64,000 bases of DNA from Phycisphaerae bacterium (GCA_050115495.1 JASFQK010000003.1:148259-212258), one strand, 5' to 3'; positions 29,466-48,838 are shown, numbered from the stretch's first letter. Notes: generated from the letters alone by a model not told the origin. Translations and numbers: made by a program.

Positions 29466-29719
29466 TGATGCGTGCGGGAAAAGAACGGTCGAAATGGGGA
29501 AGGGCGGTAAGGCTAGTGGGGCAAAGGACTTAGCGGCGGTTGGCGGTGGAAGGAATGCCGGCGCTTAGGCGCAAATGGCCGGCGGGGGCTGATGTAAGTC
29601 CTTTGTGGGGCGTGAGTTAAAAAAGACCGGTCGCGCGGAATCAAATCTGCCATTCGGCCGGGGGGCGTGACGGCCCTGGCGGGCTGGAAACGCGGTTTCT
29701 GTCGGGAAAAGACCGGTCG
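29466..29719 (+). repeat. Left end with three putative transposase-binding sites
   Basis: TGATGCGTGCGGGAAAAGAACGGTCG from 29466; core AAAAGA(A/C)CGGTCG at 29479-29491, 29621-29633, 29707-29719. Confidence 0.85.
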
Positions 29720-30249
29720 AACGTGACAGCGCCGAAGAGGGGGCGGATCGTGCGTAAGCACTGCGCCACAACGGCTTTGCAGGCGTTTCGACGGCCGATG
29801 TGTCACGGTGCGCTGTCACGGTGGGTAGCGTGACATTTCCGGCCCGGGAGCGGTTTCGGCGCGGCGCAATCGACGGACCGATAACGTCCTTATTGAGACG
29901 GGGTCGCGCGGCGGTGGTGCGGGGCCGCCGGCGGGTCGCGACGGGGCGGGACCGCCCGGTGGGGACCGGGTTCGGCGGGCCGCCGAAGGACGGACGGCGC
30001 CCGGCCGAAGGGGCGTCGGAGACCGGAGCGGATCGGGGCGGGCGGTGGGCGGTTGTCGTTTGTGCAACAGCGGGCGACAGACGGTTACGCGGGGCTGCCG
30101 GGCGGTGGCGGCGGGCCGGGCATGGCCGGGTTCGATCCAGGTTCGACGGCTCGCCGGGCTGGCGTCGAACGGTGTTCGACGGGCGGTTGCGGCGGGGCGA
30201 CCGCCGACGGGGCGAAGCGGGGGCTTCTGCGTCGGGGCGCCGGCGGCGA

Positions 30250-30650
30250 CACGGCGGTAGGCCCATCACTTCACGATAGGCGGGCGTCTCGCTGGCAAGC
30301 TGCATCGCGTCGCGAAACGACAACGTCTTCAACGCGACGGTTGCCACCGGTGATTGAACCATGCTCTTGAAGCAGCCGGCCGTGCCAGGCGTTTGCATCG
30401 CGCGGCGGTATCGAATCGGCTGACCGCAAACCACACTATTCATATTACTGTCGTTCGGGCGGAAGCCGGGCAGACCGGCGGTGCCGCAACACGTTCGATC
30501 ATCGGACAGCCGGCGGAGACGGTTCTCCGCACATAGGAACTTCAGGCCGAGCTCGTGGCAATGCTCCCGGATCAACCGCAGGTCGCGCTCAAGCGCACCG
30601 ACCGCGTAACACCAGTCCGCGCCGACGTGGACCAGCCCGGGGGCGGCGCG
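30250..30650 (-). pseudogene. 5'-truncated fragment resembling the C-terminus of a phage radical-SAM (SPL-like) protein
   Basis: Open frame PGLVHVGADWCYAVGALERDLRLIREHCHELGLKFLCAENRLRRLSDDRTCCG...GTAGCFKS; no CxxxCxxC N-terminus, in-frame stop just upstream; family recognised from memory. Confidence 0.5.
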
Positions 30651-30673
30651 GTATCGTACAATCGAGGTGGATT

Positions 30674-31006
30674 ATGCACGCAATAATGATGCTGGCGTTT
30701 TCGGGGGCGGTCACGCTGACCGCGGGACAGAGGACGTACTTCATCGTGGCCGGGGTCATTGTGGCGGCGCTGGCGTGGGCGGCGGCCGGCGCGGCGGTCG
30801 GTAGCTGGATCGGGAAGCAGAACGGGCACAGCACGGCGTCCCAGCTTCTGGCCATTCTCTTGGGACCGCCGGGCATGATTGCGGCTGTGCTGTTGCCGCG
30901 GACACCCCGGGCGGAAGCGCGCTGGCGGATTCAGGTCAAGCGGGCGATGGAAGACGAGCTGAAGGCGGCGGCGCAGAACCCGCCGCAAGCTGTTCCACGC
31001 GACTGA
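30674..31006 (+). CDS. Small membrane protein (element cargo)
   Basis: 110 aa, two to three hydrophobic segments, GAGGTGG RBS. Confidence 0.65.
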   Translation: MHAIMMLAFSGAVTLTAGQRTYFIVAGVIVAALAWAAAGAAVGSWIGKQNGHSTASQLLAILLGPPGMIAAVLLPRTPRAEARWRIQVKRAMEDELKAAAQNPPQAVPRD

Positions 31007-31038
31007 ACGCGGCGGCGGCGTGCGGACGTCGCGAGCGG

Positions 31039-32220
31039 CTACGGTGAGCATGGAGCGTCGCGGGCCGGGTCGAACCAGTAGCGGAAGGCGGCGTCAAGAT
31101 CAGCAAGGTGCTTCCGCATTGCTTGCCGTGTGGACTCGTCGGCGGCGCCGAAGACCTGCTCGGCGAGGGGTGGTAGGGCAAACAGGCGCATGGCGAACTC
31201 AGCGTAGCGGACGGCTTCGAGTGCTCCCGGCCAGGGGGGCTCTTCGCCGGCCGGCGCGCTCAACTCGCGAAAGTAACCGTCGGGGGAAGTCTCGCGGGCC
31301 TTCGTGACGTATTCGTTCAGGTACAGATAGTGGGGGAGCAGTCCGCGGGCCAGGTCCGAATCGTTGCTTATCAGGCGCAAGAGCTGGCTGAGCCGGAAGG
31401 CCGTCATGACGTCGTGCAACTGGGCGACGGTTTCGGCGGCGATTCCGTGAAAGCCGTACTCGGCTTCGATTGCACTGTCGCGGAAGGTGAGGGATAGACT
31501 CGCTTCGCGGCCGGCGAGGCCGGCGGCCACACAGTCCCACTCGTCAATCATCCTGCCCCAGTGCTGAGCGCTGCGCTCGGAGGCGAAGAGGGTCACACGC
31601 CACACATGCGGGAGGCCCGTGATTACGTCATTCATGGCGTCGCGCGCGATCTCGTCGAGCGGATCGGGACCTTTCGCGAAACTGGCGCTCTCCGCGTCGT
31701 GCTTCAGACCGGCCGCGAAACGGGTACTCTCCGCGTCGTGCTTCAGCTCGGCCGCGGCGCGGCGAAGCAACTCAACTTGTGCATCGGACGGCGGCGACGT
31801 GCGCAGGGCCACCCATGCCAGCGTCGAACCGATCGAACGGACACCATGAAACAGGACTTCGTCCGGGACCATGCGGCCCGCAAGACTCACATCCGACAGC
31901 CGGTCGTGAAGGATGTGGGGCAGGTGTCGCCAGAGAACGAGGCCGGGGAGGGCGACGCCGCGCATGGCGTCGGTGACGGCGGGCGGTTTGCTGACCGCGT
32001 CGGCGAGGGCAAAGAACTCATCACGGTCACGCTGATCGAGCGCAAGTGCCGTCGCCAGCCGGGTTACGGTGTCCCATGTCGGACGGGCCTCGCCGCGCTC
32101 AATGGTCGCGACGTGGTTCGTGGCTATGCCCGCGGCCCGGGCCAGCGACGCGGCGGACCGGAAGCCGTGCGCCTTTCGTTTGTCCCGGAGCCAGACGCCG
32201 AGTGCCTTGCTCGCCTTCAT
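31039..32220 (-). CDS. XRE-family HTH repressor with long C-terminal domain
   Basis: LRDKRKAHGFRSAASLARAAGIATNHVATIERGEARPTWDTVTRLATAL; divergent from the cro-like gene. Confidence 0.85.
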   Translation of the reverse strand: MKASKALGVWLRDKRKAHGFRSAASLARAAGIATNHVATIERGEARPTWDTVTRLATALALDQRDRDEFFALADAVSKPPAVTDAMRGVALPGLVLWRHLPHILHDRLSDVSLAGRMVPDEVLFHGVRSIGSTLAWVALRTSPPSDAQVELLRRAAAELKHDAESTRFAAGLKHDAESASFAKGPDPLDEIARDAMNDVITGLPHVWRVTLFASERSAQHWGRMIDEWDCVAAGLAGREASLSLTFRDSAIEAEYGFHGIAAETVAQLHDVMTAFRLSQLLRLISNDSDLARGLLPHYLYLNEYVTKARETSPDGYFRELSAPAGEEPPWPGALEAVRYAEFAMRLFALPPLAEQVFGAADESTRQAMRKHLADLDAAFRYWFDPARDAPCSP

Positions 32221-32251
32221 CACCAGCAAGCATAGCGAACGGCCGCAACAA

Positions 32252-32325
32252 TTGCACCGATAACGACTTCCGAAAATTGTCTGAATCACCGTTGACAGCG
32301 GTGCAAATGAACGTTAGAAACGGTG
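32252..32325 (+). promoter_or_regulatory. Early promoter with overlapping operator-like palindromes
   Basis: TTGACA 32292-32297, 17 bp, TAGAAA 32315-32320; CACCG-N7-CGGTG 32287-32303; GAACG-N7-CGGTG 32309-32325; TTGCACCG 32252-32259. Confidence 0.65.
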
Positions 32326-32340
32326 AACATGAAGGGAAAC

Positions 32341-32598
32341 ATGGTAAAACTTGACGCCGGAAGGCTGAACCGGGCTCGGTTACGCCGCGGGTGGACGTGG
32401 GCAGACGTGGCCGCCGCAACGGGGCTAGCGAGTCGGACAAGGACAAAGCTGGCGAATGGTGAGCCCGTGACGATCACGGTGGCGCGGCGGGCGTGTGCGG
32501 CGTTGCGCATATCGCTTGCGGCAGCGCTGATTCTTGATGACCCCGTGTCAGTGGAGGCGCCGGCCGAGCTGCCAGTTGGACAGAGCGCGGTGGCATAG
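32341..32598 (+). CDS. Cro/Ner-like small HTH protein
   Basis: RLNRARLRRGWTWADVAAATGLASRT...ARRACAAL; first gene of the rightward operon. Confidence 0.8.
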   Translation: MVKLDAGRLNRARLRRGWTWADVAAATGLASRTRTKLANGEPVTITVARRACAALRISLAAALILDDPVSVEAPAELPVGQSAVA

Positions 32599-32727
32599 CC
32601 CGCTTATGGCGTGACGAGATGACGCACAACCTCAGACATAACGAACGGCTCTCGTCACGCGGCCGGCCGGCCGGCGCTACGGCGCCGCCGGCCGTGCCCT
32701 TTGTGTGTTGTGATTGTGGGTGAGCAG

Positions 32728-33168
32728 ATGACGGAGTCCGTCTCAAAACTCGGTGGCGGCGGGCTGTCGGCGGAGGCGACCCAGGCCTTAATCGAGGAGG
32801 GTATAGCAGCCGCCGCCGAATGCATGGCGGGGCTCGTCGCCGGGCCGCGGTGGTTCGTTGGGCTTCTGGGCGCGGCAGCACGCTTCGCCGCCGTGACGCC
32901 GCTCGGCGAGATTCTGTCCACAGACCTTGACCGGGTGTGTGAGGAAGCCCCCGACGCCTGGAACGTCGTGGGTGAGTTGCGCGCGCTCAGAGCGCGGCTC
33001 GACAGCCTACTCGGGCTCCTGCCGGCCTTCGGCGAGATGGCGTTGCGCGTGGGTGGTTTGGGCGGGGTGCCAGACAAGGCGGCGCTCGATCTCTGCTCGG
33101 CCTTCGCCCATATGGCACAAGGCGTTCTCCGGCGGTGGCTGGCGGAGCTGGAGGCGGCCGAGCAATGA
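32728..33168 (+). CDS. Hypothetical protein
   Basis: Stop overlaps the transposase ATG (ATGA). Confidence 0.55.
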   Translation: MTESVSKLGGGGLSAEATQALIEEGIAAAAECMAGLVAGPRWFVGLLGAAARFAAVTPLGEILSTDLDRVCEEAPDAWNVVGELRALRARLDSLLGLLPAFGEMALRVGGLGGVPDKAALDLCSAFAHMAQGVLRRWLAELEAAEQ

Positions 33169-35711
33169 GCGCGGGCCTGCGACTGGCGCCGGGCGAGTAC
33201 GTCACCGAAGACGGTGAGGTTATTCAGCGCCAGCCGCGCGCGGGGTTGGGGGCGGGGCGGGTGCCGTTCGAGCTGTGCCGCGGGGCGTGGCCGTGCACCG
33301 ATGTGGGCCGGCAGCAGCGGCGGCGCTTCTGGATGGGCTTGTCCGAAACGCTGCGGGAAGAGGGGCCCGACGGCGAGAAGTACATCGACGCCAGCGTTAC
33401 GCTGCCCGGCGGTGACAAGGCGGGGAAGTTCGTCCAATTGGAGTGGGGCTACAAGCCGCCGGCAGGGTGGCGGACCTGGACGGCGCAGCAACGGCGCGAC
33501 TGGGAACGGAAGGTCGCGGTGTTGGTGCGTGTGGAGCAATTCTTCCTCGCTCGCCCGCACCTGCTGCGGTCCAAACCGTCCAGCTACCGGGAGTTCAATC
33601 GTGCCAATGTCGAATGGCTGGCCGAGATGGGACGGGAGTATCAGCCGTGCGGCCGGCCGCTGCGCGTCAGCAAGACGACGTTGAACGCGTATGCACGAAC
33701 AATCAACGATCCGGATAAGGCCGCACCCAAGCGCGGCCGGCCGAAGGGGAGCGGCGCGAAGGAATGGCACCCGCGGGCGCTTGAGCTGTTCGACACGCTC
33801 TACCGCGGGCACCGCGACGCGAGCGACGTACTGCGGAAGATCCAGGCCTACGCATGGAAAGAGGGCTTCGAGGCGCCGACGCCGGCTATGGTCTACAAGC
33901 GCATTCGGGAGATGACGCAGGCGGAGCGGGTCTTTCGACGGTCCGGGATGCGCGGCGTGAAAGAGCAGTGCGTTCCGAAGATGCGACGGACGCGAGCGGA
34001 ACTGAAGGGATGGTCGTTCGGTGATGGACATACGATAGCCGGGTTCATCAGGGTGCCTGACGGACACGGCGGTTTGAAGGCAGTGCGTCCGACGGTTGCC
34101 GGCGTCTATGTGGCATTTGCCCAGAAGTTCTCGGAGGCGCGCGCTGGGTTGTCCGAGAGCGCGGAACTGATGGCGGCGGCGTGGCGAGGGGCGGTCCTCG
34201 AAGATGGGCCGCCGGCGGTCGCGCAGTTTGACAACACACACGCCATGGACGGGCTTACGGGCTCGCCGTATCGCAAGCAGCCGGGGCGGCGGGCCAAGTA
34301 CGCCAGCGGGGGCCTGGGCGGTTTCTTCTCACTCTTCGGTACGCAGGTGCACAAGAGCAAGCCCGGAGAGAAGCACACGAACGCAGTTGAGAGCGGCTGG
34401 CGGTATTTGATCCGCGCGGTTGAGAAGTGGATGAACTCATACTGCGGGTCGCATCCGAAGGACAAGCCGGAAGGGCTGGACCGCTGGCTACGAGACAACA
34501 TCGACAAGCTCCCGACGCTGGAAGACCTGAACGTGTTCTTGCGAGAATTCAAGGCTGCGCACAACGCAACGCCGCGGCGGGCGCTGGGGGGCTTGACACC
34601 CAACCTGTTCATGGAGCGGTACGGTCCTACGCGGCGGATCATCGACCCCGACACGATCGACATTTACCTGTGCCCGATTGTGGCGGAACGGACGCTGGGG
34701 CGGGACGGCGTTTCGCTCAACGACATCCTGTACACGCCGGGGCCCAGCGTACTGCTGCGGTGGCAGGGCAAGCGTGTCGGTGTGCGACGAGACCCGGACC
34801 GGCTGGACCGTGTCACGCTCTGCGACGCAGACGGCGTCGCGATCGGGCGAGCGTACAACGACAAGCTGCGCGGGGCGCGTGCCCAGTCTATGAAGGTGGC
34901 AGAGCGTCGGGCACGACAGTACAAGGCCGCGCTGCGCACGATGATCGACACGCGGGATACGCGCTTCATGCCGAAGACCTTCGAGATTCTGCGCGTTGAG
35001 CGAGAGTACCGCGAGGCCGAAGAGGGGCGGCTGCGGAAGCAACTCGCCGACGATCCCAAGCGGGAGACGACGATCATCCGGCCGGACCTGGCCGCGTCCG
35101 CGGCTGAATGCAAGGAAGCGGACGCGCGGAGAGATGCGCAGCACGAACGACAGAAGGCGCGCAAGGCCGTCGGCGATGCTGCGGAAAGGGCGGGGTACTC
35201 GCAGGACGAACTCCTGTCGGGACTGGGCAGGTCGGCGATGCTGACGGGCGGCATGTCCGACGAGCTGCGAGCGAGGATTCGTCGCAGCATCAACATGATG
35301 GATGACTGCGACAACGAGTGTGAGGCCCGGGCGGAAGCTCAGGAGCCGGGGGACCGGCGCCGCATGGTGATGGAGCAGCTCGCGGCACGGGCTCGATACG
35401 ATGAAGAGGCCGAACGCAACACGCCGCGCCGGGAGAGCATCGGAGAGCGGTTCGCGAAGATGTACAGGGAAGCAGAGGGCGGAGGGCAGGGGGGACCAGG
35501 TGGGGACATGAGCGGCTTCGACATGCTGGCCCGCGGGCCGGCGGCGGACGCGGACGACGACGACGAGCTGGACCCCGTCGCGTTGCGCATGGAGTACTTC
35601 GGGAGTGAGATCCCGCGGCCGCCATCGGAAGAGCCCAACCCGTGGGACGAGTTTGTAGTGGGCGAAGACGAAGACGGCGACGCTGAGCAGGGGGACGACG
35701 ATGCGGCGTAG
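33165..35711 (+). CDS. Mu-type DDE transposase (MuA-like)
   Basis: SFGDGHT (D), AQFDNTH (D), NAVESGW (E), HNATPRRALGGLTPN, RTLGRDGVSLNDILY C-terminal domain; HTH region VSKTTLNAY...EAPTPAMVYKRI. Confidence 0.9.
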   Translation: MSAGLRLAPGEYVTEDGEVIQRQPRAGLGAGRVPFELCRGAWPCTDVGRQQRRRFWMGLSETLREEGPDGEKYIDASVTLPGGDKAGKFVQLEWGYKPPAGWRTWTAQQRRDWERKVAVLVRVEQFFLARPHLLRSKPSSYREFNRANVEWLAEMGREYQPCGRPLRVSKTTLNAYARTINDPDKAAPKRGRPKGSGAKEWHPRALELFDTLYRGHRDASDVLRKIQAYAWKEGFEAPTPAMVYKRIREMTQAERVFRRSGMRGVKEQCVPKMRRTRAELKGWSFGDGHTIAGFIRVPDGHGGLKAVRPTVAGVYVAFAQKFSEARAGLSESAELMAAAWRGAVLEDGPPAVAQFDNTHAMDGLTGSPYRKQPGRRAKYASGGLGGFFSLFGTQVHKSKPGEKHTNAVESGWRYLIRAVEKWMNSYCGSHPKDKPEGLDRWLRDNIDKLPTLEDLNVFLREFKAAHNATPRRALGGLTPNLFMERYGPTRRIIDPDTIDIYLCPIVAERTLGRDGVSLNDILYTPGPSVLLRWQGKRVGVRRDPDRLDRVTLCDADGVAIGRAYNDKLRGARAQSMKVAERRARQYKAALRTMIDTRDTRFMPKTFEILRVEREYREAEEGRLRKQLADDPKRETTIIRPDLAASAAECKEADARRDAQHERQKARKAVGDAAERAGYSQDELLSGLGRSAMLTGGMSDELRARIRRSINMMDDCDNECEARAEAQEPGDRRRMVMEQLAARARYDEEAERNTPRRESIGERFAKMYREAEGGGQGGPGGDMSGFDMLARGPAADADDDDELDPVALRMEYFGSEIPRPPSEEPNPWDEFVVGEDEDGDAEQGDDDAA

Positions 35712-35916
35712 CGTGGTCCTGGAACGTCTAGCGGCGGCGCGGGGGAGCGCTCGCGGGGTTGTCGCTCCGCTTCGAGCGAGCCGCGCCGCCGCTGTAATTC
35801 TTGTGTGTGTCGGGCTGTCGGCAGGGACGTCGGCGGCAGTGGCGTATCGCGGGCTGGCCGACAGGGACGTCGGCGGCTCGCTTCCCCCGATGTGCGATGC
35901 GCAGGGGACGCCAGCA

Positions 35917-36930
35917 ATGACGGTAGCAGCGAACACGTTTTCAGCAGCCTTCGAGGAAGCCGCGCGGCGAAACGAAACACGGCAGGCGGTGCGGCTGGTC
36001 CGCGACGGCGAGCCGCTCGCGGACGAGGCGGCGGCGATTGCCGCGGTTCGCAAGCACCTGGACGAGAACGGGGTCGAACCGAAGCGGCTGGCGAAGGCGC
36101 TCGACGTGGCGCCGAGCCTCATTCGGGGGCTGTTCGCAACGCCCGCGACGATTCCCGACGGCCCGCGCCACACGCTGATTCGGGACGCGAGCCGCTGGTG
36201 CCGCGCGGACGCCGAAGAGCGCCGCGTGCGCAAGGCGGCGTTCGTGCCGACGGCGTGCACGCGGCTGGTCGTGGGGCTGGCCCGCGTGGTCCGCGAGACG
36301 CGCACGATCGGGTTGGTGGTGGGCGGGCCGGGGCTCGGCAAGAGCCACGCGCTCGCAGTCGCCGCGGCGGAGTTGCCGGGCGAGACGGTGCTGGTCCGGT
36401 GTGACACGGACAGCCGCTCAGCCAAGGGCATACTCCGGGCCGTCGGCTTCGCCGGGGCGGCGGCGCTGTCGAGCGTGGCCCGGCCTTCGGTCAAGGCCGG
36501 CGTCGAGGCGGTGCGGGCCGGCAACGGACTGGTCGCCGTGGACGAGGCGCAACTTCTCGGCGTGAACGGCCTTGAGGCGCTGCGGGCCGTGTTCGATCAG
36601 GCCGGAGTCGGGCTGCTGCTGGTCGGGACCACGTCGCTGGCGCGGTCGCTGAACGGCGGGGCTGATCCGCTGTGCGGGCCGCTGGTGTCGCGGATCGCTT
36701 TGCGTGTGGACCTGGACGACGAGCTGTTGGGCGGCGGGCGGAACTGGATCGACGCGGCGGCGCTGCTGTTGACGCTGGCGAACGGGGACCCGGCGCACCT
36801 GCGGTGCGCGGTGGACACGGCGAAGGTCGCCCGCGTGCTAGCGCGGAACCGGGACGGACACGACGGCGGCGGGGCGGTTTCGCTGGCGGACGTGCAGGCG
36901 GCGCTACGCATGAGACGGAAGGACGGATGA
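35917..36930 (+). CDS. MuB/TnsC-like AAA+ ATPase
   Basis: N-terminal HTH (KRLAKALDVAPSLI), GPGLGKS Walker A, VAVDEAQ Walker B, LRAVFD, LLLVG, SRI; ORF open from 35701. Confidence 0.88.
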   Translation: MTVAANTFSAAFEEAARRNETRQAVRLVRDGEPLADEAAAIAAVRKHLDENGVEPKRLAKALDVAPSLIRGLFATPATIPDGPRHTLIRDASRWCRADAEERRVRKAAFVPTACTRLVVGLARVVRETRTIGLVVGGPGLGKSHALAVAAAELPGETVLVRCDTDSRSAKGILRAVGFAGAAALSSVARPSVKAGVEAVRAGNGLVAVDEAQLLGVNGLEALRAVFDQAGVGLLLVGTTSLARSLNGGADPLCGPLVSRIALRVDLDDELLGGGRNWIDAAALLLTLANGDPAHLRCAVDTAKVARVLARNRDGHDGGGAVSLADVQAALRMRRKDG

Positions 36931-37538
36931 CGAACGACGAGCTTAACGCGGCTCTTGCGGTGGCTCCCGGCCGGACGGTGTCGTGGGCGGCGGCGGCGCG
37001 GCTGGTGGATGCCCTCGCCCCCGGGCTGACGGCGCTGCGGCGGGACGGCACGACGCGGGCGCTGCGCACGGTGCTGTGTTACTGCGCCGCGGTGGCAGCG
37101 GACCGCCGGCGGCTGGAACAATGGCGAGCGCGGCCGCGTGCGACACGAGGCCGGCGCCCGGGGCGACTGACGATCCCGGCTTTTTTGTACAAGTGGCACC
37201 GCCAGCAGGGCGACCGCGTCTCACGCCGCACGTTCGCGCGATGGATACGCCGCTACCGGCAGACGGGGGCGGCCGGCCTGATTGACGGCCGCGGAGCGTG
37301 GAAGCGGGCGAGCACGCGCGCGGACGTGCAGCTCTTCGCCGAGTTGCTGCGGCGCGTGGCGGCTGGTGCGCCGGTCGCGGTTGCCTGGCGCGAGTTGGCG
37401 CCGGCGGCGAGAGAACAGGGAATCGCCTGGCCGGCGCTGCGCTCGATGCAGGAACGCGTGGCGGCGGTGCGGCCGTTCATCCAGGCGAACGCAGAGCTTC
37501 TGGGCGCGCCGCGGCGGCGACGAGGGGGGCGCAAATGA
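36927..37538 (+). CDS. Stand-alone transposase-type DNA-binding (HTH) protein without catalytic domain
   Basis: VSRRTFARWIRRYRQTGAAGLIDGRG and AWRELAPAAREQGIAWPALRSMQERV; ATGA overlap with the ATPase. Confidence 0.75.
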   Translation: MTNDELNAALAVAPGRTVSWAAAARLVDALAPGLTALRRDGTTRALRTVLCYCAAVAADRRRLEQWRARPRATRGRRPGRLTIPAFLYKWHRQQGDRVSRRTFARWIRRYRQTGAAGLIDGRGAWKRASTRADVQLFAELLRRVAAGAPVAVAWRELAPAAREQGIAWPALRSMQERVAAVRPFIQANAELLGAPRRRRGGRK

Positions 37539-37935
37539 GCTGGCGCTGTGCCACGAGAACGGGCCGCAGACGTGCAGGACTCGGCTCTGCTCGGCGATCG
37601 GTCGCTTGTCAGGGGGGTAAGGCGGGGCGATGCAGCCGCGGGGCTCCTGCGGGCTTGCATCACAAACTGCGAACCGCCCGGACGGTCCGGGTGGCCGCGG
37701 TCGACGGAAATCGACCTTGTCGTTGCCGATCGGATCAGCTCGCCGTTGCGCCGGCGGTGGGACTCGTCCCCCCGCCGGCGGTTTGTCGCGGCCGGCGCCG
37801 GCAGCGGCTCTGCCGACTTGGGATCCATCCGCGGGCGGGCCGCGGGCGTGGCACGTGCACGCCCGCGGTGCCGACCGTCCGCGGCACGGGCGTGGTGGCG
37901 CATTGAGTCGTCGTTAGCGACAGGAGGTCGCACGC

Positions 37936-39255
37936 GTGGCTGAGGAAAAAGAACTGCTCAAGGTTGAGCTGGACGTCGCCGAGGCGCTGGCCCGGGCCGA
38001 GAAGCTCAAGCAGACGCTGGAAGAGCTGGACAAGGTGCGGGCCGCGGGGGGCGATACCACCGGACTGGAGGCGAGACTCAACCAGGAAGTCAACGCATTG
38101 GGGGCGGTGGTCGTACAGCAGAAACAGAACGCAGGTACGACCGAAGAGGTCATTCGCCAGAAAGAGAAGCTCGCGTCGGTGGTCACCATGCTCGGCGGCC
38201 GGTTTGGGGGCTTGGTAGGGCAACTGGCGAGCGTGGGCGAGCTGTTGCTACAGATGGGACCGGCCGTTGGAGTCGTCGCCGGGACCTTGGCAGGGACCAC
38301 GGCAATCGTCGCGGGCTGGCAGGCCGTGAACCGCGAACTCAAGGAAGCCGCCGAGCGTCTGGAGCACTTCCGCAGGGCGAAGGAAGAGGTGGTCAAGGGC
38401 GAGATGTCGCCGTTGAGACAGATCGAAGGCGACCTGCTGAAGATGGGGCTCCTGGAACAGGGCCGCGCCGAGAAAGTGTACGACTACGCGCTGGCCATGA
38501 TGAGCCAGGGTGTGCCGAAGGACCTGGCGCTGTCGATTGCTCCCGAAGCGCACGCGGCGGGATTGCCGTCACAGTCGGCTTCGATACTGGCGATGGCGAA
38601 GGCGGCGGGGGTGGAGATTGCCGATACGCCGCGGGCGATGAAGACGGCGGACGAGCGGATGTCGGCCGAGTCGCGGCTTCTGTTCTCTCAGCAGCTCGTC
38701 GCGATGCGCACCACGCTTACCGGAAGAGACGCAATCGGCGAAGCGGCGAACATGCGGCGGATGAAGGAAGACGACCCCGGGAACTGGCTCGCGTACATGG
38801 GCGGCACTACGGACGTGAGGACGCTTGAATTCGCGAAGCGGATGGGGTTGCTTGATCCGGAAGCGGGACGGCAGGACGTTAGCAAGAAGATGGGCGAACT
38901 CGCGCGTGCGCGCGGGGGGCGAAGGCGGCTACGCAATTACCTGGCCGGCCGGTCGCCAGACGAAGACGGCCCGGCGGACGAGGTGCCTAAGCCGACGCCG
39001 CAATTCGATCGGCAGATCGAAGAGTTGGAAAGAATCGAGAACATCTACAAGGAGATTGGCGCAAACCGGGCCGCAGAGGACGCGTCGGGTCCGGCGCCGG
39101 GATACACGCCGCGGAATGGGACGGTCAACGTGTACAACCTCTACAACACGACGAACCAGGGCGTAGTGCTGAACGCGCCGGACCCGCGGATGCGCACGCC
39201 GGGGGTGTCGTCGCTCAACCCGGGACTGGCCGACGCATTCAGGAACCGGGATTAG
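37936..39255 (+). CDS. Coiled-coil, tape-measure-like protein
   Basis: Helical N-terminus, Gly/Ala-rich hydrophobic stretch, C-terminal TVNVYNLYNTTNQ; AGGAGG RBS; function is inferred. Confidence 0.55.
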   Translation: MAEEKELLKVELDVAEALARAEKLKQTLEELDKVRAAGGDTTGLEARLNQEVNALGAVVVQQKQNAGTTEEVIRQKEKLASVVTMLGGRFGGLVGQLASVGELLLQMGPAVGVVAGTLAGTTAIVAGWQAVNRELKEAAERLEHFRRAKEEVVKGEMSPLRQIEGDLLKMGLLEQGRAEKVYDYALAMMSQGVPKDLALSIAPEAHAAGLPSQSASILAMAKAAGVEIADTPRAMKTADERMSAESRLLFSQQLVAMRTTLTGRDAIGEAANMRRMKEDDPGNWLAYMGGTTDVRTLEFAKRMGLLDPEAGRQDVSKKMGELARARGGRRRLRNYLAGRSPDEDGPADEVPKPTPQFDRQIEELERIENIYKEIGANRAAEDASGPAPGYTPRNGTVNVYNLYNTTNQGVVLNAPDPRMRTPGVSSLNPGLADAFRNRD

Positions 39256-39267
39256 ACGGGAGACCCC

Positions 39268-39708
39268 ATGTCTTTTGAGCTGGTCGAATCTGGCGACTTC
39301 GGCGGCGGCGGTGAGGCCCTGGCCGAGGGGGAATGCAGCCTGAGGAAGGGCGGGAAGCTGGTCGCACACGCCGCGGACCTGGCGCTCGTGAACATCGGCA
39401 ACTATGCCATGGTCATGGCCGATGCCGGGACCCTGCGCATCGCGCTTCGGGCGGTGCGCGATGGCGAGGAAGCGAAGAGTTACGCGTGTTCGGTGGTCCG
39501 AAGAGCCAACAAGACCGATAGCGGCCGGCGCGAAATCAACGTGTTGCGAGCTTTGCACCGGCTGAACCTTACGCCGGAAGCGGTGGTCGGTCGGTACCCG
39601 CTGACCGTGAAGGGCGAGGGCGCCGGCGGGATGCTCATTGTGAATCTGGTCGGCGACGGGGCGAAGGACCCGGAGGGGGAGAAAGACAAGGGGGCGGCGA
39701 AGGCGTGA
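39268..39708 (+). CDS. Hypothetical protein
   Basis: 146 aa, GGGAG RBS, operonic position. Confidence 0.75.
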   Translation: MSFELVESGDFGGGGEALAEGECSLRKGGKLVAHAADLALVNIGNYAMVMADAGTLRIALRAVRDGEEAKSYACSVVRRANKTDSGRREINVLRALHRLNLTPEAVVGRYPLTVKGEGAGGMLIVNLVGDGAKDPEGEKDKGAAKA

Positions 39709-39839
39709 TGTTCGGAAGGGGTGCACATGTCGGATTCGGGCGGGTCGGTGGCGACGGCGCCGCCGCCGGCGGGCCTATGCGGACGAGTGGGTCGCACGGG
39801 CCACCGCTTCGCGCCGCGGGACAGATGGAGGATACGAGC

Positions 39840-40160
39840 ATGTCAGACCACACCCAACAGAGTGCGGGGGAACCGACGAGCTGGCCGCCGCTGGATTCGC
39901 GGGTGGAACTCAGAGTGCGGGGGATGGAACGGGGCGCACGTGCGCACGGCCGGCTGTTGGCGGCGTGCGAGCTGACGTCCGACGATCAGCAGCGGCTACA
40001 TGCCTGGCTATCCGGGCGCGGCGGCCCGGCACAGTTCGGCGCCCTGGTCCGGTTGTTGGGCAGGCTGGACTTCGATGAACGCCGGGACTTGATCGACGGG
40101 CTGCACGAGATCATCGAGGTACCGGCACCGCAGTCGTCGGACGCGAAAGGCGGTGCGTGA
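39840..40160 (+). CDS. Hypothetical protein
   Basis: GGAGGA RBS before ATG 39840; stop overlaps the next start. Confidence 0.6.
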   Translation: MSDHTQQSAGEPTSWPPLDSRVELRVRGMERGARAHGRLLAACELTSDDQQRLHAWLSGRGGPAQFGALVRLLGRLDFDERRDLIDGLHEIIEVPAPQSSDAKGGA

Positions 40161-40855
40161 TGTGTGGACACGCAACAACGGTACGGCAGGACATGCCGAC
40201 GTGGTCGGCGCTGAAGGATTTGGTCGCCGGGTTGGGGGAGCGGGACATCAACCGCCCGCTCGGTCGGGCCAGCGGTGACGAGCCGCTGTTGCCGGCGCCG
40301 GAGGTCGTGGCTGAGGCCGTCGCCCGGGAGTTGCTTTGCATCAGGCAGCGAATGGCGGCGGCGCTGGGGTGGCTTGAGCAAGGGATCATCGCCGATTTCG
40401 AGTTCGCGGCCGACGATTGCGAGGCGGGCCGGCGGCTGGCGGTGGACGAGCTGCACGATGCGCAGACCCGGCTCCATGAATGCGGCGGAGCGCTGCTGAC
40501 CTGGCTGCGCCTGGTCGGGCACAGCTCGATTGTGCCGTTGGATGCGGAATCATGGGCGGCGCTCTGCGCTTTGGCGGAAGACACGCTGCCGCACCCGCAC
40601 GCGGGCTACGTCAGCGAGCTCGTCAAGGCGGCCGTCGTGAACCTGTCAGAGCGACAGGACGCCCCGGCGGTAGTCGCGCGCGGCGAGTGTGAGCGGCTCC
40701 GGGCGTGCGGGTTCAAGCTGAAACCGGACCGGTGGCCGTCTGTCCAGGTCGGCGGCGGGAAGCCCTGGCCGGCGACGGAAGCGAAGAATGGCAAGAGCGG
40801 CAAGGCGTCGCGGGCGAAGGCGTCCGCGGGCAAGGCCGCGGTGGCGGTTGCTTGA
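40157..40855 (+). CDS. Hypothetical protein
   Basis: 232-aa ORF, GTGA overlap with the upstream gene, Lys/Ala-rich tail. Confidence 0.65.
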   Translation: MMCGHATTVRQDMPTWSALKDLVAGLGERDINRPLGRASGDEPLLPAPEVVAEAVARELLCIRQRMAAALGWLEQGIIADFEFAADDCEAGRRLAVDELHDAQTRLHECGGALLTWLRLVGHSSIVPLDAESWAALCALAEDTLPHPHAGYVSELVKAAVVNLSERQDAPAVVARGECERLRACGFKLKPDRWPSVQVGGGKPWPATEAKNGKSGKASRAKASAGKAAVAVA

Positions 40856-40865
40856 GGATCTGAGC

Positions 40866-41948
40866 ATGTACGGGTGTCTGGTTGCGAAGGTGGGCGGCGT
40901 GCCCAAGCGTGAGTTTCGCATCGTCCCATACGGCGCGGTCGATGCGGTCAACGCCGCGAAGGGCGGGCCGTTCACCTTCACACGCGAACACGCCCGACAG
41001 GCGGTCTCGTGGTTCCAGCGGGTGGGCCGAAAGCTGATGATCGACTACGAGCATCAAAGCGTGCAGAGTTTGAACACCCGGCCGGACGGGCTGTCGCCCG
41101 CGGCCGGGTGGATCGGGCGTATCGAAGCCCGTCCGGATGGACTCTGGGCGGCGGATGTCGAGTGGACGGCCGCCGCTGCGGAAGCCCTTCGGCGCGGGGA
41201 GTACGCCTACTTCTCGCCGGTCATTTACTGGGGCGACCGGAACCATGGCACACTCGACAGCTTGGGGCCGATCGCGCTCACCAACGATCCGAGTATGACC
41301 AACGTCGAGCCGCTCGTCGCGACGCGGCTACACGTGGATGTGTTCGCCGGCGACGGCGCCGGCGGAAGTGAGACCAGCCCGGGCAGGACGCCGCGGGGCG
41401 CAACACAAGGAGACGGTATGAGCCCGATGGATCGGGTGGCGGAGGCCCTTGGGCTTGCGCCCGGGGCGAGTCTGGAAGAGATCCTCGCCGAGATCAAGCG
41501 GCGGGGTGGCGCACAGACGACGGCGGCGATTCGCGCGCGACTGGGACAGCTCGAAGCGGGAGTCACGGCACTGACGGGCTGTCCGGCGCGCGGGGCGAAC
41601 GACGAAGCCGGCTGGGCGGCGGAGTACGACGCAAACCTCCCCGACGCGGAAACGGGACGTCCTCTTCAGGACTGCTTCATGAGCAGAGACAACTACGTCC
41701 ACTACATGAAGGCGGTACAGGATGGGCTTGTTACCACGCGCCCCAGCCGACAGCAGCGGGCGGCGACGGTTGCCAAGCGCAGAGCGGAAGAGGGGATGTC
41801 GGACGCGACCTTCGAGGCCGTTCTGAGGAGGGAGTGGAACGGCAACGTGGTCGACGAGACCGGCCGTCGCGTGCGCGAGTGTTTCTTCAGCTTCGAGAAC
41901 TTCGCCGCGTACCGGCGGGGCGTGAGATCGGAACGCATCACAGCGTAG
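40866..41948 (+). CDS. Mu gpI-like prohead protease with C-terminal scaffold region
   Basis: LMIDYEHQS, SPAAGWI, DGLWAADVEWT, EYAYFSPV, ALTNDP motifs of Mu-like prophage I proteases. Confidence 0.9.
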   Translation: MYGCLVAKVGGVPKREFRIVPYGAVDAVNAAKGGPFTFTREHARQAVSWFQRVGRKLMIDYEHQSVQSLNTRPDGLSPAAGWIGRIEARPDGLWAADVEWTAAAAEALRRGEYAYFSPVIYWGDRNHGTLDSLGPIALTNDPSMTNVEPLVATRLHVDVFAGDGAGGSETSPGRTPRGATQGDGMSPMDRVAEALGLAPGASLEEILAEIKRRGGAQTTAAIRARLGQLEAGVTALTGCPARGANDEAGWAAEYDANLPDAETGRPLQDCFMSRDNYVHYMKAVQDGLVTTRPSRQQRAATVAKRRAEEGMSDATFEAVLRREWNGNVVDETGRRVRECFFSFENFAAYRRGVRSERITA

Positions 41949-42020
41949 GCCGCTGCGGGCATCGGACGAGAAGACACCAGCAGCCACGAACGGCTGCGTA
42001 GCTTGAGAAAGGATTCGGGA

Positions 42021-42863
42021 ATGACCGATGTGGGACTGACTGAGAAGCCGATTACCAGCAAGCTGTCCGAGCAGGCGGCGGCGCTGTTGGCGGATCGGCG
42101 TGCCAAGGCGGGGCAGGCGTACTCGGAGATGCTTCGCCGCAACGATTCGCCGCAGGCAGGCGACGCTGAGCGACTGGCGGACGTGATGCACACGCTGGGG
42201 CGGGACGGCAATGACCTCGAAGACGACACGCTCCTGGTGCAGAAGATCATGGAGGCGGAACAAGCCGCCGGTGACCTGGAGGCCTTCGAGGCGACCGAGG
42301 CGCCGCCCATCGCGCAGAAGTACCGCGATGGAATGGCCCGGTTCAAGGCCGAGCGGGAGGCGTTCGAGAAGCGGTGGCATGAGGAAATCGAGGCGCTGGA
42401 ACGCGAGTGGAGCCTCTGCAAGCACAAGCGTGTGAACCTGAACACCGTCGCCAGACAGCTCGACTTCCTGCGGCGGAAGTGGGCGGAGCGGATCGGTCAG
42501 CCCTTGCCGCCGGTGAAGCGGGAGACCATTCCGGCTCCGAAGCCGTCGCGTGAGGAAGTGATTGCCCGCATGAAGCGGGAGTGCGAGCGATTCACGTTCA
42601 GCGTGGCGGTAAGTCAACGGACCCGGTGGACAGTAGCCGACGGCGTAGGCCGTGGCTGGAGGATACGAACATGGGACAACCGATTCACGCAGAGCAGCAG
42701 AAGCAGCAGTTGTTGCTCGCCTGGCTCGCGGTTGAGCCGGGCCTGCAAAACCTGGACACGCTCCCGCCGCAGGTCCTCGACCTGGAAGAGTGCTTTCACA
42801 CGGTGCCGCAGTCCATCGCGCACCTGGTTCGGCCGGGGGGCAGCGCTACGTATCGCGAGCTGA
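42021..42863 (+). CDS. Hypothetical coiled-coil protein
   Basis: First ~195 aa are protein-like; the tail overlaps the next gene by 193 bp, so the end is uncertain. Confidence 0.6.
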   Translation: MTDVGLTEKPITSKLSEQAAALLADRRAKAGQAYSEMLRRNDSPQAGDAERLADVMHTLGRDGNDLEDDTLLVQKIMEAEQAAGDLEAFEATEAPPIAQKYRDGMARFKAEREAFEKRWHEEIEALEREWSLCKHKRVNLNTVARQLDFLRRKWAERIGQPLPPVKRETIPAPKPSREEVIARMKRECERFTFSVAVSQRTRWTVADGVGRGWRIRTWDNRFTQSSRSSSCCSPGSRLSRACKTWTRSRRRSSTWKSAFTRCRSPSRTWFGRGAALRIAS

Positions 42864-43291
42864 TTCAGCGGCTGAAGCGCATGCGGCGTCTGGCGACCTG
42901 GATCGAAGACGAAGACGGCCTGGACACGCTGCCCGGCATGCCGGAAGGCGTCCAGTTGCTGAGCGACTGCGGGCACGCTGTGCCGGAGTCGGTGTCGGCG
43001 AAGGTCGGCTTCAACGGCCCGACCGGTTACGGGGCGGTGGTGGAGCGTCTGGGGCACATGGGGGCGCTGCTACGCTTCCTGGACGGGCATCCCGACGGCT
43101 TGCGGCCCGGCGACGAGATTCCGGCGGACGTGCTGAAGCTGAAGGACTGTTCGGTTCCCATCCCGTCGGCGAGCGAATCGACCGCGTCGGCGGCGGTGGG
43201 TCTGTCCGGACGCGTGTCCTACGGGTTGATCGTCGGGCGGCTGCTTGAGCTGAAGGCCGCGCCCGCGACCGACCAGCCCGCAGCGGAATAG
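42671..43291 (+). CDS. Hypothetical protein with three internal ~57-aa repeats
   Basis: Repeat 'L....GL....P..V..L.(D/E)C...(V/I)P.S...V...G...Y....RL'; GGAGGA RBS. Confidence 0.7.
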   Translation: MGQPIHAEQQKQQLLLAWLAVEPGLQNLDTLPPQVLDLEECFHTVPQSIAHLVRPGGSATYRELIQRLKRMRRLATWIEDEDGLDTLPGMPEGVQLLSDCGHAVPESVSAKVGFNGPTGYGAVVERLGHMGALLRFLDGHPDGLRPGDEIPADVLKLKDCSVPIPSASESTASAAVGLSGRVSYGLIVGRLLELKAAPATDQPAAE

Positions 43292-43425
43292 ACGACCGCC
43301 CGGCGGCGGTTCTGCGGGCCTTCGATGAGCGATTGATTAGCCGTCGAAGGACGACATAGAGGCCGAACCGACGGCCTTATTGAGACGCCCGGTGGGGGGC
43401 CGGGCTTGGAGTTTGCGCCCGTTTT

Positions 43426-43473
43426 CGACCGGTCTTTTCGTGCAGCGCGACCGGTCTTTTCGCGCGCCGATCA
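43426..43473 (-). repeat. Right end with two tandem putative transposase-binding sites
   Basis: CGACCGGTCTTTT at 43426-43438 and 43448-43460 (22-bp period); terminus ...CGATCA at 43473. Confidence 0.85.
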
Positions 43474-43534
43474 TGAAGGGCCCGCGAGGTGGCCGGAGGG
43501 GGTTTTGAGCCGCCCGGTCGCTGTGTGACTCATA

Positions 43535-43562
43535 ACGTCCTATAATATATATTATGTTGCGT
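43535..43562 (+). other. dif-like XerCD recombination site
   Basis: ACGTCCTATAA-TATATA-TTATGTTGCGT, 11-6-11 layout, intergenic, strikingly AT-rich; close to B. subtilis dif as recalled (ACTTCCTAGAA-TATATA-TTATGTAAACT). Confidence 0.8.
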
Positions 43563-43645
43563 TCGGCATAATGGGCGGGTAGGGTGCATTAGCCCCCCGG
43601 CCCCGGGCCTTTTCGTATATCCGACTGAGGGTTGGGATTGCTGGG

Positions 43646-43972
43646 CTACGGCTGGCGGTTGTCGGCCGGTGCGGCGGTTTGAAGCTGGCTTAACTCAAAG
43701 CCAGCCAAGGGCTTAAGCTGACGCCGGTTATAGTCGTAGCTGTAGACGATCATACGCTTGGCGGCGGCGTCGAGGACGATCACGCCCTCGTTCGACGTCG
43801 TAAGTTGTTGCGTGCAAACGACATAGTCTCCGCTGCGGTCGCTCATGCCGATGGCCTGCGCCGGCGGCGCAGAATTCACCAGCAAGAGCCCGACGAAGAA
43901 AATGCACGCGGTCACACTCAGAACGCCGATGGCAAACGTCCGGGCGTCGATCGTGGTGGATGGCGTGCTCAT
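43646..43972 (-). CDS. Hypothetical small membrane-anchored protein
   Basis: TM plus beta-rich tail; operonic. Confidence 0.75.
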   Translation of the reverse strand: MSTPSTTIDARTFAIGVLSVTACIFFVGLLLVNSAPPAQAIGMSDRSGDYVVCTQQLTTSNEGVIVLDAAAKRMIVYSYDYNRRQLKPLAGFELSQLQTAAPADNRQP

Positions 43973-43975
43973 GGT

Positions 43976-44263
43976 TTAGTCCCGGTTGTTACGGAAATCA
44001 CGTTCGAGATCTCGCCAGTCGCTGTAGGTCAGCTCCTGACGGCCACGGTCCCAGTAGAAGACGTGCAGCGTGCGCGCACGAAGATCGAACACGTACAGCG
44101 CATCGTGCTCGTCCTGGATCTCGCCGGCGACCATGATGTAGTTGCCGGCCAGGCCGGTGCCCTGGGCGGCGGCGGTCGGCAGCGAGTAGCTGGCGAGGCA
44201 CAGTCCGGTAAGCAGGACCAAGTTCAAGCAGACCAGCAAGGCGACGATGTAGTCTCTGCGCAT
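43976..44263 (-). CDS. Hypothetical small exported protein
   Basis: Hydrophobic leader, GGAGG RBS; similar to the neighbouring gene. Confidence 0.75.
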   Translation of the reverse strand: MRRDYIVALLVCLNLVLLTGLCLASYSLPTAAAQGTGLAGNYIMVAGEIQDEHDALYVFDLRARTLHVFYWDRGRQELTYSDWRDLERDFRNNRD

Positions 44264-44276
44264 GGCGCCTCCCGCA

Positions 44277-44501
44277 TCAATCGAGATGGCTTCGGTGCGG
44301 ATTCTTGAAGGCGATCAGCATGCAGACGGCGATGAAGCCGACCCCAAACAGCCACTGGAGCCAGGGCTTCGTGAATTCCATCACCGGGACGTCGACGTAC
44401 GGGGGCTCATCGTCCTGAGCGAAGGCAGGCTCGGCGACGACGATCAGCAGGACTAGCAGGGCTGCCGCGAGACGGAAAAATCTTGACCAGCCGTACGACA
44501 T
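44277..44501 (-). CDS. Hypothetical small protein
   Basis: Signal peptide (AFA/Q), TM, C-terminal KNPHRSHLD. Confidence 0.7.
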   Translation of the reverse strand: MSYGWSRFFRLAAALLVLLIVVAEPAFAQDDEPPYVDVPVMEFTKPWLQWLFGVGFIAVCMLIAFKNPHRSHLD

Positions 44502-44764
44502 CCGGGGATCTCCGTAGCGGGTCCAGGGGGACCTTCACCACAGGCATGGTAGCGGTGCCCGGTGGTCTGGGCAAGCGCCGGCCGATTCGGTGGCGGCACT
44601 ACGGCCCCCCTGCCCCGGCGGCGCAGCTTGAGTTTCGGCTGGTCAGCGGATATCGTCCCCATTTGAACGACGGCAGCCTATCGGTGGGCGTCGGCTCCCG
44701 TCCCCGCAAGCGGGTCATCTGGACGCTCCCCCAATCACAGCCAGATTAGTATGGTGAGGACGGC

Positions 44765-46084
44765 ATGAGTGTGGACCCACGGAAAGTGATCATTCTGGGC
44801 GCTGCGGGGCGCGATTTTCACGATTTCAACACGTATTGGCGCGACAACCCGGCGTACGAGGTCGTAGCCTTCACGGCGACACAGATCCCGGACATCGAGG
44901 GACGCGTCTATCCGCCGGTGCTGTCGGGCCCGCGCTATCCGAAGGGTATTCCGATCTACGCCGAGGAAGAGCTGCCGAAGCTCATCGAGCAGACCGGCGC
45001 CGACCTGTGCACGATCGCCTATTCCGATCTGCCGCACGCGGTGGTGATGCACAAGGCGTCGCTCGTGAACGCTTGCGGGGCGGACTTCATGATCCTGGGC
45101 CACCGGCACACGATGCTGAAGAGCAACAAGCCGGTGATCGCCGTCTGCGCCGTGCGCACGGGCTGTGGCAAGAGCCAGACATCGCGGGCGGTCGTGTCGA
45201 TCCTGAAGAAGCTCGGGAAGAAGGTGGCGGCGGTGCGGCACCCGATGCCGTACGGCGACCTGGCCAAGCAGGTTTGCCAGCGGTTCGCCACGCTCGAGGA
45301 CATGGACAAGCACGAGTGCACGATCGAGGAGCGCGAAGAGTACGAACCGCACATCGCTACGGGCAACGTGGTCTTCGCCGGCGTGGACTACGCGAAGATT
45401 CTCGCGGCCGCCGAGGCTGAGGCGGACGTGGTTCTGTGGGACGGCGGGAACAACGACATGTCGTTCTACAAGCCGGACCTGTACATCACGGTCGTCGACC
45501 CGCACCGGCCCGGTCACGAGCGCGCCTACTACCCGGGTGAGACGAACCTGCACATGGCCGACGTCATCGTCGTGAACAAGGTCGGCACGGCCCGGCCGGA
45601 AGACGTGCAGACGGTGCTGAAGAACATCGCCGAAGTGAACCCGCAGGCGACCGTCATCCAGGCGAACTCGCCGGTGACCGTGTCCGATCCGTCGCAGATC
45701 AAGGGCAAGCGCGTGCTGGTGGTCGAGGACGGCCCGACGCTGACGCACGGCGAGATGAAGTACGGCGCCGGGCACGTGGCGGCGCGGCAGTTCGGGGCGG
45801 CGAAGATCGTTGATCCTCGCTCGGTGGCCGTCGGTTCGATCCGCAACACCTTCGCCAAGTACACGCACGTGAGCGAGGTGCTGCCGGCGATGGGCTACGG
45901 CGACACGCAGGTCAAGGAGCTCGAGCAGACGATCAACGCGGTCGATTGCGACCTCGTGCTGATCGGCACGCCGATCGACCTGGGCCGCATGCTCAAGATC
46001 AACAAGCCGACGATGCGCGTGCTGTACGAGCTGGAAGAGCGTCAGCCCGGCCAGCTTGAGGCGGCGATTCGGAAGGTCGTGTAG
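44765..46084 (+). CDS. Cyclic 2,3-diphosphoglycerate synthase-like P-loop GTPase (COG2403-like)
   Basis: GAAGRDFHDFN, AVRTGCGKSQT, RHPMPYG, WDGGNND, EDGPTLTHG. Confidence 0.85.
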   Translation: MSVDPRKVIILGAAGRDFHDFNTYWRDNPAYEVVAFTATQIPDIEGRVYPPVLSGPRYPKGIPIYAEEELPKLIEQTGADLCTIAYSDLPHAVVMHKASLVNACGADFMILGHRHTMLKSNKPVIAVCAVRTGCGKSQTSRAVVSILKKLGKKVAAVRHPMPYGDLAKQVCQRFATLEDMDKHECTIEEREEYEPHIATGNVVFAGVDYAKILAAAEAEADVVLWDGGNNDMSFYKPDLYITVVDPHRPGHERAYYPGETNLHMADVIVVNKVGTARPEDVQTVLKNIAEVNPQATVIQANSPVTVSDPSQIKGKRVLVVEDGPTLTHGEMKYGAGHVAARQFGAAKIVDPRSVAVGSIRNTFAKYTHVSEVLPAMGYGDTQVKELEQTINAVDCDLVLIGTPIDLGRMLKINKPTMRVLYELEERQPGQLEAAIRKVV

Positions 46085-46094
46085 CCGCAGCGCT

Positions 46095-46481: not shown

Positions 46482-46588
46482 GCCGGGCCCCAGAGACAGT
46501 GAATGTCGAGGACAACTGGGGAATCGACCGGATGGCGGCCCGGCTTGAAGCCGACCTCGGCAATCTACCGAGACGATAACTCAGGGGT

Positions 46589-46651: not shown

Positions 46652-48838
<2,187 letters not shown>

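Follow-up and report, generated by a model that had tools for sequence, protein, structure and literature searches.

Gene X and its neighbors

The window analyzed here is a stretch of 64,000 nucleotides (nt) from a Phycisphaerae bacterium (GCA_050115495.1, JASFQK010000003.1:148259-212258; genome G000), and all positions are counted from its first letter. It contains a Mu-like element in which a small gene, termed X (protein P0001), follows the genes for a DDE transposase (A) and a MuB-like AAA+ ATPase (B). Gene X is located at 36927..37538 on the plus strand and encodes a protein of 203 amino acids, which was classified as a stand-alone paralogue of the transposase end-binding module (subdomains I-beta plus I-gamma) on the basis of its open reading frame (ORF), Pfam and PHROGs matches, an alignment profile termed A1, and a fold model. 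The transposase gene extends over 33135..35711 (+, start codon uncertain) and was assigned by phrog_310 (E 8.5e-46) and Mu-transpos_C (E 3.1e-8); the ATPase gene at 35701..36930 (+) was assigned by phrog_296 (E 2.4e-27) and AAA_22 (E 2.1e-13).

The translation of 36927-37538 is free of internal stops. An initial annotation, made from the sequence alone, had described X as a copy of the end-binding module that is joined to the ATPase gene and devoid of a DDE core. The junction was found as described: the ATG of X (36927-36929) overlaps the TGA of the ATPase ORF (36928-36930) in the context ggATGAcg, with an AGGA 9 nt 5' of the start. The G+C content at third codon positions (GC3) in the frame of X was 0.78-0.88 over 36940-37360, which is a coding signature, weaker than that of the ATPase gene (0.85-0.93).

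Searches against Pfam assigned HTH_29 (E 1.5e-6, residues 97-128) and HTH_28 (E 6.5e-6) to X. Neither rve nor Mu-transpos_C was matched, in agreement with the missing DDE core. HTH_Tnp_Mu_2 (PF09039) and TniQ gave no match at E<=0.1, and the Mor domain (PF08765) gave none in the Pfam search. With NCBIfam, only sub-threshold matches to the N-terminal helix-turn-helix (HTH) domains of IS630, IS481 and ISNCY were obtained. Against PHROGs, residues 48-183 aligned with phrog_310 (E 5.9e-6), a Mu-like transposase profile of 696 positions. The match of X was confined to positions 134-244, whereas the transposase of the element spans positions 96-625 of the same profile. The I-beta-like subdomain (residues ~25-122; 36999..37292, +) includes the HTH at 97-128 and the conserved residues W106, G114, L118, D120, R122 and G123. 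The I-gamma-like subdomain (residues ~125-198; 37299..37520, +) carries the motif GIAWPALRSMQERV.

The stand-alone family

In a word-indexed search for homologues of similar length, only X itself was found among 8000 candidates scored. An exhaustive HMMER search of 1.84 billion representatives recovered 26 other proteins at E<=0.001, six of them at E<=1e-10. They comprise 159-359 amino acids, mostly 180-220, and many align over most of X. The alignment of X with these 26 relatives (27 members) was used as profile A1. W106 and L118 are invariant in it, G114, D120, R122, G123 and A161 are nearly invariant, and the consensus contains the motifs ...ALVDxRGR... and ...WPSLRTxQxR.... Pfam matches over the 27 members were HTH_28 in 20, HTH_29 in 19, HTH_32 in 11 and LZ_Tnp_IS481 in three; HTH_Tnp_Mu_2 was reached at E<=0.01 by a single member (E 5e-5).

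Ten members that were looked up form near-singleton clusters from metagenomes or metagenome-assembled genomes (MAGs), one of which is named as a Phycisphaerae MAG. No match was obtained with X by tblastn against 50,697 phage records or with P0001 in a scan of viral contigs, and in PHROGs X is covered only by the transposase family and not by a family of stand-alone proteins. In the ESM Atlas, small clusters from Pseudomonadota (154-189 amino acids) labelled as Mu I-gamma domain proteins were found with scores of 0.91-0.93. They are candidate stand-alone copies, and such copies may be more widespread.

Homology to the MuA end-binding module

According to passages of PMC3362531, I-beta and I-gamma, both subdomains of MuA, recognize the transposon-end sites, and III-beta contacts MuB. 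The A1 profile matched MuA in the Mu transpososome (4fcy_A) with E 2.7e-4 over residues 85-160 of the chain, across the ...AAALVDGRG... segment at the end of I-beta and I-gamma; the match to isolated I-gamma (2ezh_A) was weak (E 0.32). The same profile matched the N-terminal 130-260 residues of Mu-like transposases of 600-900 amino acids with E 1e-13 to 1e-24. Such N-terminal matches occurred in 24/401 genomes sampled from the phylum (E<=1e-3) and in 55/401 sampled from the class (E<=1e-5). The best ones (loci L025 and L026, E ~1e-24) came from the host family of the window itself. In two full-length transposases (L002/L003) an excisionase-like HTH is followed by LPxxQRQ..., by an HTH ending in ...GLADGRSRR and then by ...GWRIPSLRRMQQLV; the order of the modules is that found in X.

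The AlphaFold model of X, built with A1, had a mean predicted local distance difference test score (pLDDT) of 87.5 and consists of two helical bundles (residues ~20-118 and 134-192) with a low-confidence linker between them. Foldseek against the PDB gave no match at E<=0.001. In an alignment without prefilter against 48,161 PDB chains, the best fold matches were end-binding subdomains of MuA, and the results listed from this comparison held no TniQ or TnsD chain. The two-subdomain helical fold, I-beta followed by I-gamma, is thus present in the model; a lack of a MuA-like fold, which the initial annotation had named as evidence against its reading, was not observed. A match of the N-terminal part of A1 to WhiB4 (7f7n, E 2.8e-4) was rejected as a chance match of a helical stretch rich in arginine and glutamine; it had no support in the fold search.

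The sequence profile, the fold and the N-termini of full-length transposases together bear out the proposal that X is homologous to the end-binding module of the MuA type (I-beta plus I-gamma) and stands alone.

Comparison with the transposase of the element

Five partner transposases were aligned (A4), and the alignment was compared with A1 by profile-profile alignment (hhalign). Residues 30-178 of X were collinear with residues 108-261 of the transposase (E 6.5e-4). This counterpart of X, the I-beta/I-gamma-like region of the transposase itself (residues ~108-261), is encoded at 33456..33917 (+). The alignment paired VSRRTFARW...DGRG with VSKTTLNAY...KRGR, and AREQGIAWPALRSMQERV of X with AWKEGFEAPTPAMVYKRI of the transposase; exactly these two parallels between HTH-like motifs had been pointed out before. 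The A4 profile matched MuA (4fcy_A) with E 8.6e-27 from ...VDGRG... (I-gamma) through the core, and the partner transposases keep their own I-gamma. The transposase thus retains an end-binding module of its own; X is a further copy that has diverged strongly, and not the missing half of a split gene.

Phylogeny

A tree was calculated from 69 module sequences over 134 columns (IQ-TREE quick). It contained a clade of 27 rows consisting of X proteins only, with a support of 80 in the Shimodaira-Hasegawa-like approximate likelihood ratio test (SH-aLRT). This clade comprised the X proteins of the window, L021, L049, L050 and L052 and 22 representatives. A second X-only clade of six rows had a support of 86 (inner node 100). 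The stand-alone label required seven changes on the tree, compared to a mean of 22.4 after shuffling, and none of 500 shuffles was as low. With modest support, the tree suggests that the stand-alone lineages are long-lived and arose at least twice.

Two variants of the domain arrangement were observed. The X variant of L052 (8790-9596, G652) has a second I-gamma-like repeat after the I-beta-like part. In the X-like protein of L053 (7872-8561, G623), an I-beta-like HTH is followed by a C-terminal excisionase/I-alpha-like HTH, and its predicted domains make it a mosaic in which N-terminal domains of transposases are permuted.

Gene arrangement in related loci

Stand-alone hits were fetched with their flanks, and A, B and X were mapped by phmmer, hmmsearch and PHROGs. 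Two contigs of ~2 kb (L058, L059) and L045, of which 2.3 kb were fetched, were left out of this comparison. Three hits were excluded from the count of X genes: L062 represents the N-terminal part of a transposase that is split, L063 is an IS481-like HTH protein of 134 amino acids, and L064, a frame of 475 amino acids with a partial match only, is ambiguous.

In the window and in 13 other loci, X shares its strand with A and/or B. The co-occurrence that the initial annotation had named as a check recurs in related elements. From the stop of B to the start of X the distance was -4 nt (ATGA) in the window, -4 nt in L049 (same genus) and in L052 (G652), 0 nt in L050 (G560), +3 nt in L055 (G576) and +7 nt in L060 (G606). 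X starts within this range of -4 to +7 nt in six of the seven loci measured, the exception being L053, where it lies 516 nt after the stop of B with another small gene between. B and X have overlapping reading frames in L054. X precedes A in three elements: 7 nt separate the stop of X from the ATG of A in L021, 7 nt separate it from an in-frame GTG of A (inferred start) in L084 and its twin L083, and X lies ~700 nt before A in L051. In L056, L057 and L061 it is found several kb 3' of A-B, after a tape-measure-like gene. The position that TniQ/TnsD genes have, which the initial annotation had ascribed to X, is therefore occupied in the window, L049, L050, L052, L055, L060 and probably L054; this does not hold for L021, L051 and L083/L084.

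No nucleotide similarity was detectable between the element of the window and L021 or L049-L052, so the recurring arrangement does not stem from near-identical copies. The recurrent tight overlap with the ATPase or transposase gene suggests a role of X in the transposition module. A fusion of B and X by frameshifting was considered and discarded, as L050 has a stop directly before the ATG of X in the frame of X.

Some further observations were made in these loci. The MuB-like ATPase of the L021 element (12419-13979) appears to be split over two frames, with phrog_296 matching two overlapping ORFs. An array of 61-bp tandem repeats lies to the left of the same element (~6650-7150, G748), and apart from this unrelated array, a k-mer search for the termini of the elements in L021 and L052 returned noise.

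The Mu-like element and its surroundings

Upstream of A, a gene for an XRE-type repressor-like protein (31039..32289, minus strand; HTH_31, E 2e-10) and, as the first gene of the early operon, a Ner/Cro-like HTH gene (32323..32598, +; HTH_26, E 1.4e-4) were identified. A 39-nt tandem duplication (85% identical) is present inside the repressor-like gene at 31668-31745 and yields the repeated peptide ...LKHDAES....

Three direct copies of the 14-mer GAAAAGACCGGTCG are located at the left end (29478..29719, +; copies at 29478, 29620 and 29706), with a TG at 29473, and two inverted copies at the right end (43426..43461, minus strand; 43426-43439 and 43448-43461). No other copy was found in the window at <=2 mismatches. 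The five matches compare to 1.0 expected, and none of 100 shuffles reached five. By this repeat pattern the sites are taken to bound a compact element of ~14 kb (29473-43466), and they are candidate binding sites of the transposase or of X. The right terminus is ambiguous. It lies either at 43444, where the inner site ends in ...GTGCA and mirrors the left TGCGG terminus, or at ~43466; 22 nt beyond the inner site, the outer one has GCGCG after it and no CA. When an empty site was sought in relatives, only the upstream AAA gene was conserved, so the borders are not confirmed by comparison; the flanks differed, and no conserved insertion target was seen.

The element carries a Mu-like head protease (PF10123, E 1.5e-33). 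Terminase and portal genes were not matched among its ORFs scanned with Pfam and PHROGs, and an ORF of 439 amino acids at 37936-39255 gave weak tape-measure-like matches only (E 0.003-0.02). Judged by this gene content, the element could be satellite-like or decayed. Of several genes without an assigned function, the 439-residue ORF, an ORF of 146 amino acids and the ORF 29565-30575 recur in L021, L050 or L051.

Between X and the 439-residue ORF lies a gap of 397 bp (37539..37935) with hairpins and palindromes and without a supported gene. It contained no Rfam family, no sigma-70-like promoter, no end-type site beyond chance and no repeated candidate operator, only GC-rich palindromes. The overlapping ORFs 37548-37943 (+) and 37253-37933 (-) had no Pfam or PHROGs match at E<=0.01, and phmmer with the transposase of the element matched only the transposase itself in the window.

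A dif-like sequence (…TCCTATAATATATATTATGTTGCGT…) is located at 43535-43562, and a search allowing <=2 mismatches found its 17-nt core nowhere else in the genome. In the same genome, a second cluster of Mu-like head genes was detected on another contig (G000:C14, ~42,000-48,000; L073 16690-19849 and L074 395-1672). It encodes a portal protein (phrog_113, E 1.8e-73), a protease (phrog_328, E 1.6e-34), a virion protein and a major head protein (phrog_371, E 2.9e-52), is flanked by genes with host-type matches (glycosyltransferase, cation efflux), and has no Mu-like transposase nearby.

Proposed function of X

From its sequence, X is best described as a conserved paralogue, with its own gene, of the two-part end-binding module found in Mu-like transposases. 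The favored interpretation of its function is drawn by analogy with IS1 InsA and IS3 OrfA, which inhibit transposition through binding to the inverted repeats (passages of PMC13181058). Like these proteins, X may bind sites of the Mu-end type without having catalytic activity and thereby modulate the assembly of transpososomes; this is proposed tentatively, at a little under an even chance. X would be co-expressed with A and B from the early operon of the element, and its two HTH subdomains, connected by a flexible linker, would bind the two halves of a Mu-end-type site in the manner of I-beta and I-gamma of MuA. Because X has neither the catalytic nor the C-terminal domains, a site occupied by it could not contribute a protomer to the transpososome. 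By competition or by occupation of accessory sites, X would adjust the assembly of transpososomes at the ends of the element, most likely by limiting or timing it.

Several points weigh against a modulator of this kind. Every functional step assigned to X is inferred only, and a replicative Mu-like element has no obvious use for an inhibitor that is produced alongside A and B. In a BLASTP comparison, X gave no significant match to the transposase of the element (best E 0.22), the hhalign probability for this pair was only 27%, and the SH-aLRT value of the 27-row clade is not strong. In the lineage of the window's X (group 1), the partner transposase was matched by the X profile at E<=1e-3 in none of the six loci with A on the contig (window, L021, L050, L051, L052, L084), while it was matched in 6/6 other loci (L053, L055, L056, L057, L060, L061; E 1e-16 to 1.5e-6). 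X of group 1 may therefore recognize sites other than those of A. The main weakness is this dissimilarity between X and the module of its partner, with which the DNA recognized may differ as well, and it leaves room for a late activator, an ATPase adaptor or an interference factor.

Alternative explanations

As the element's own transcription factor, functionally similar to Mor/C, X would switch on the structural genes from 37936 onward. Its place as the last early gene before the gap with hairpins and palindromes, the gaps 3' of X in L050, L052, L055 and L060, and the absence of a Mor-family gene (PF08765) from the element at E<=0.1 in a genome search are consistent with such a late activator, and so is the prediction of a sequence-specific HTH protein with recognition sequences unlike those of the partner transposase. 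X itself has no similarity to Mor/C, however, no repeated operator was seen in the gap, X is situated before the transposase gene and far from late genes in L021, L051 and L083/L084, and its recurrent tight overlap with the ATPase or transposase gene points to the transposition module instead. A late activator is rated as rather unlikely, if the most credible of the alternatives. A DNA-binding adaptor of the MuB-like ATPase, analogous in function to TnsD/TniQ and steering or excluding target DNA, would fit the gene order transposase-ATPase-X, which mirrors tnsB-tnsC-tnsD and tniA-tniB-tniQ, as well as the ATGA or 0-7-nt junctions with the ATPase gene in six loci and the position of the element ~70 bp (from its outer right-end site) from a genome-unique dif-like site. 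The target selector suggested in the initial annotation has nevertheless lost ground, as X has no TniQ similarity in Pfam at E<=0.1 and no conserved insertion target was apparent among relatives. X precedes the transposase gene in three elements, the fetched stretches around the other group-1 loci contained no dif-like site, and the flanks differ among relatives. X also lacks the region corresponding to III-beta of MuA, which contacts MuB (passages of PMC3362531). An adaptor of this type is considered improbable.

An equally small probability is given to X as an interference factor that binds the ends of a different Mu-like element, be it helper or competitor, and blocks its transposition. X is far closer to the N-termini of the L025/L026 transposases, which come from the same host family (E 1e-24), than to that of its partner, and the element is compact, with a head protease and without a terminase, portal or convincing tail match in the ORFs scanned. 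The L052 element (G652) is similarly compact (A-B-X-protease-capsid, then a recA-like gene). The element is no more than a putative satellite, though, and X-like genes also adjoin transposases that do match the X profile (L053, L055-L057, L060, L061). A helper phage, whose ends X had been suggested to block, was not found: in this genome (92% complete) X was the only match of A1, phrog_310 matched only A, X and, weakly, a sequence on contig C79 (E 9.1e-6, one TAG), and there was no second Mu-like transposase with an X-like N-terminus. In a broader proposal, X and its relatives would serve as the third dedicated subunit in one lineage of compact Mu-like elements from Planctomycetota, with transposase, ATPase, X and head protease/capsid genes but without a detected terminase or tail; as a sequence-specific adaptor with a DNA specificity decoupled from the transposase, X would guide the MuB-like ATPase towards selected DNA or keep it away from it, or would capture the ends of a co-resident Mu-like phage. 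This is judged doubtful, and if it were true, the elements would be transposable satellites with their own targeting or interference factor. Finally, X could be a decaying fragment of a second transposase gene, since it corresponds to the N-terminal module only and the related locus L062 really is a piece of a split transposase. This explanation was rejected as highly improbable. There are 26 other stand-alone relatives of similar length with conserved motifs, 27 rows form an X-only clade, X has the GC3 signature of a coding gene and a conserved junction with its neighbor, and no remnant of a DDE core was present downstream, where the initial annotation had asked for remnants at 37540-37930 as a sign of a truncated pseudogene.

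Comparison with known systems

To our knowledge, the accepted textbook picture of Mu-type transposition does not include a stand-alone copy of the end-binding module. X resembles MuA in having two helical HTH subdomains in the same order. It differs in being a separate protein of 203 amino acids without I-alpha, the DDE core (domain II) and domain III; its DNA binding is predicted, and only one of the 27 family members reaches HTH_Tnp_Mu_2. With InsA/OrfA, X shares the non-catalytic character, the use of the DNA-binding module of the transposase and the tight linkage to transposition genes, and three of the 27 family members also match LZ_Tnp_IS481. Unlike InsA/OrfA, X does not represent the upstream frame of a fusion made by frameshifting but is a diverged paralogue in a gene of its own. 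Compared pairwise, X and the partner transposase are not significantly similar, and its host element is Mu-like and ATPase-dependent.

The repressor c of phage Mu, which maintains lysogeny, shares the I-alpha (enhancer/operator) DNA-binding domain of MuA. X would likewise act in trans to regulate a Mu-type element, with a DNA-binding domain that the transposase also has; the shared part is, however, I-beta/I-gamma (ends) and not I-alpha, and X is situated in the early lytic operon. In Tn7-like and Tn5053-like elements, TnsD/TniQ is encoded after the transposase and AAA+ ATPase genes. As a putative DNA-binding protein X follows such genes as well, but it has no TniQ similarity, precedes A in three elements and shows no conserved target. 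Orf121 of IS91 is a small accessory ORF that regulates transposition and whose stop/start overlaps the neighboring transposition gene (passages of PMC13181058). X is also a small accessory ORF overlapping a neighboring transposition gene; Orf121 is an unrelated protein from an HUH rolling-circle element.

A full-text literature search, including passages of PMC4236739 and PMC13639185, yielded no description of a stand-alone end-binding-module protein. The recurrent, tightly coupled A-B-X module in uncultured Planctomycetota suggests an additional control of transpososome assembly or target choice, and genome engineering with MuA- or TnsB-like systems could gain a natural modulator from X. Should X be an ordinary competitor, the InsA/OrfA principle would have a further case, this time in a phage-like element that transposes. 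By its predicted domains, X belongs to the transposase-derived, non-catalytic DNA-binding accessory proteins, a kind of protein that is known, in a Mu-like setting that appears to be new.

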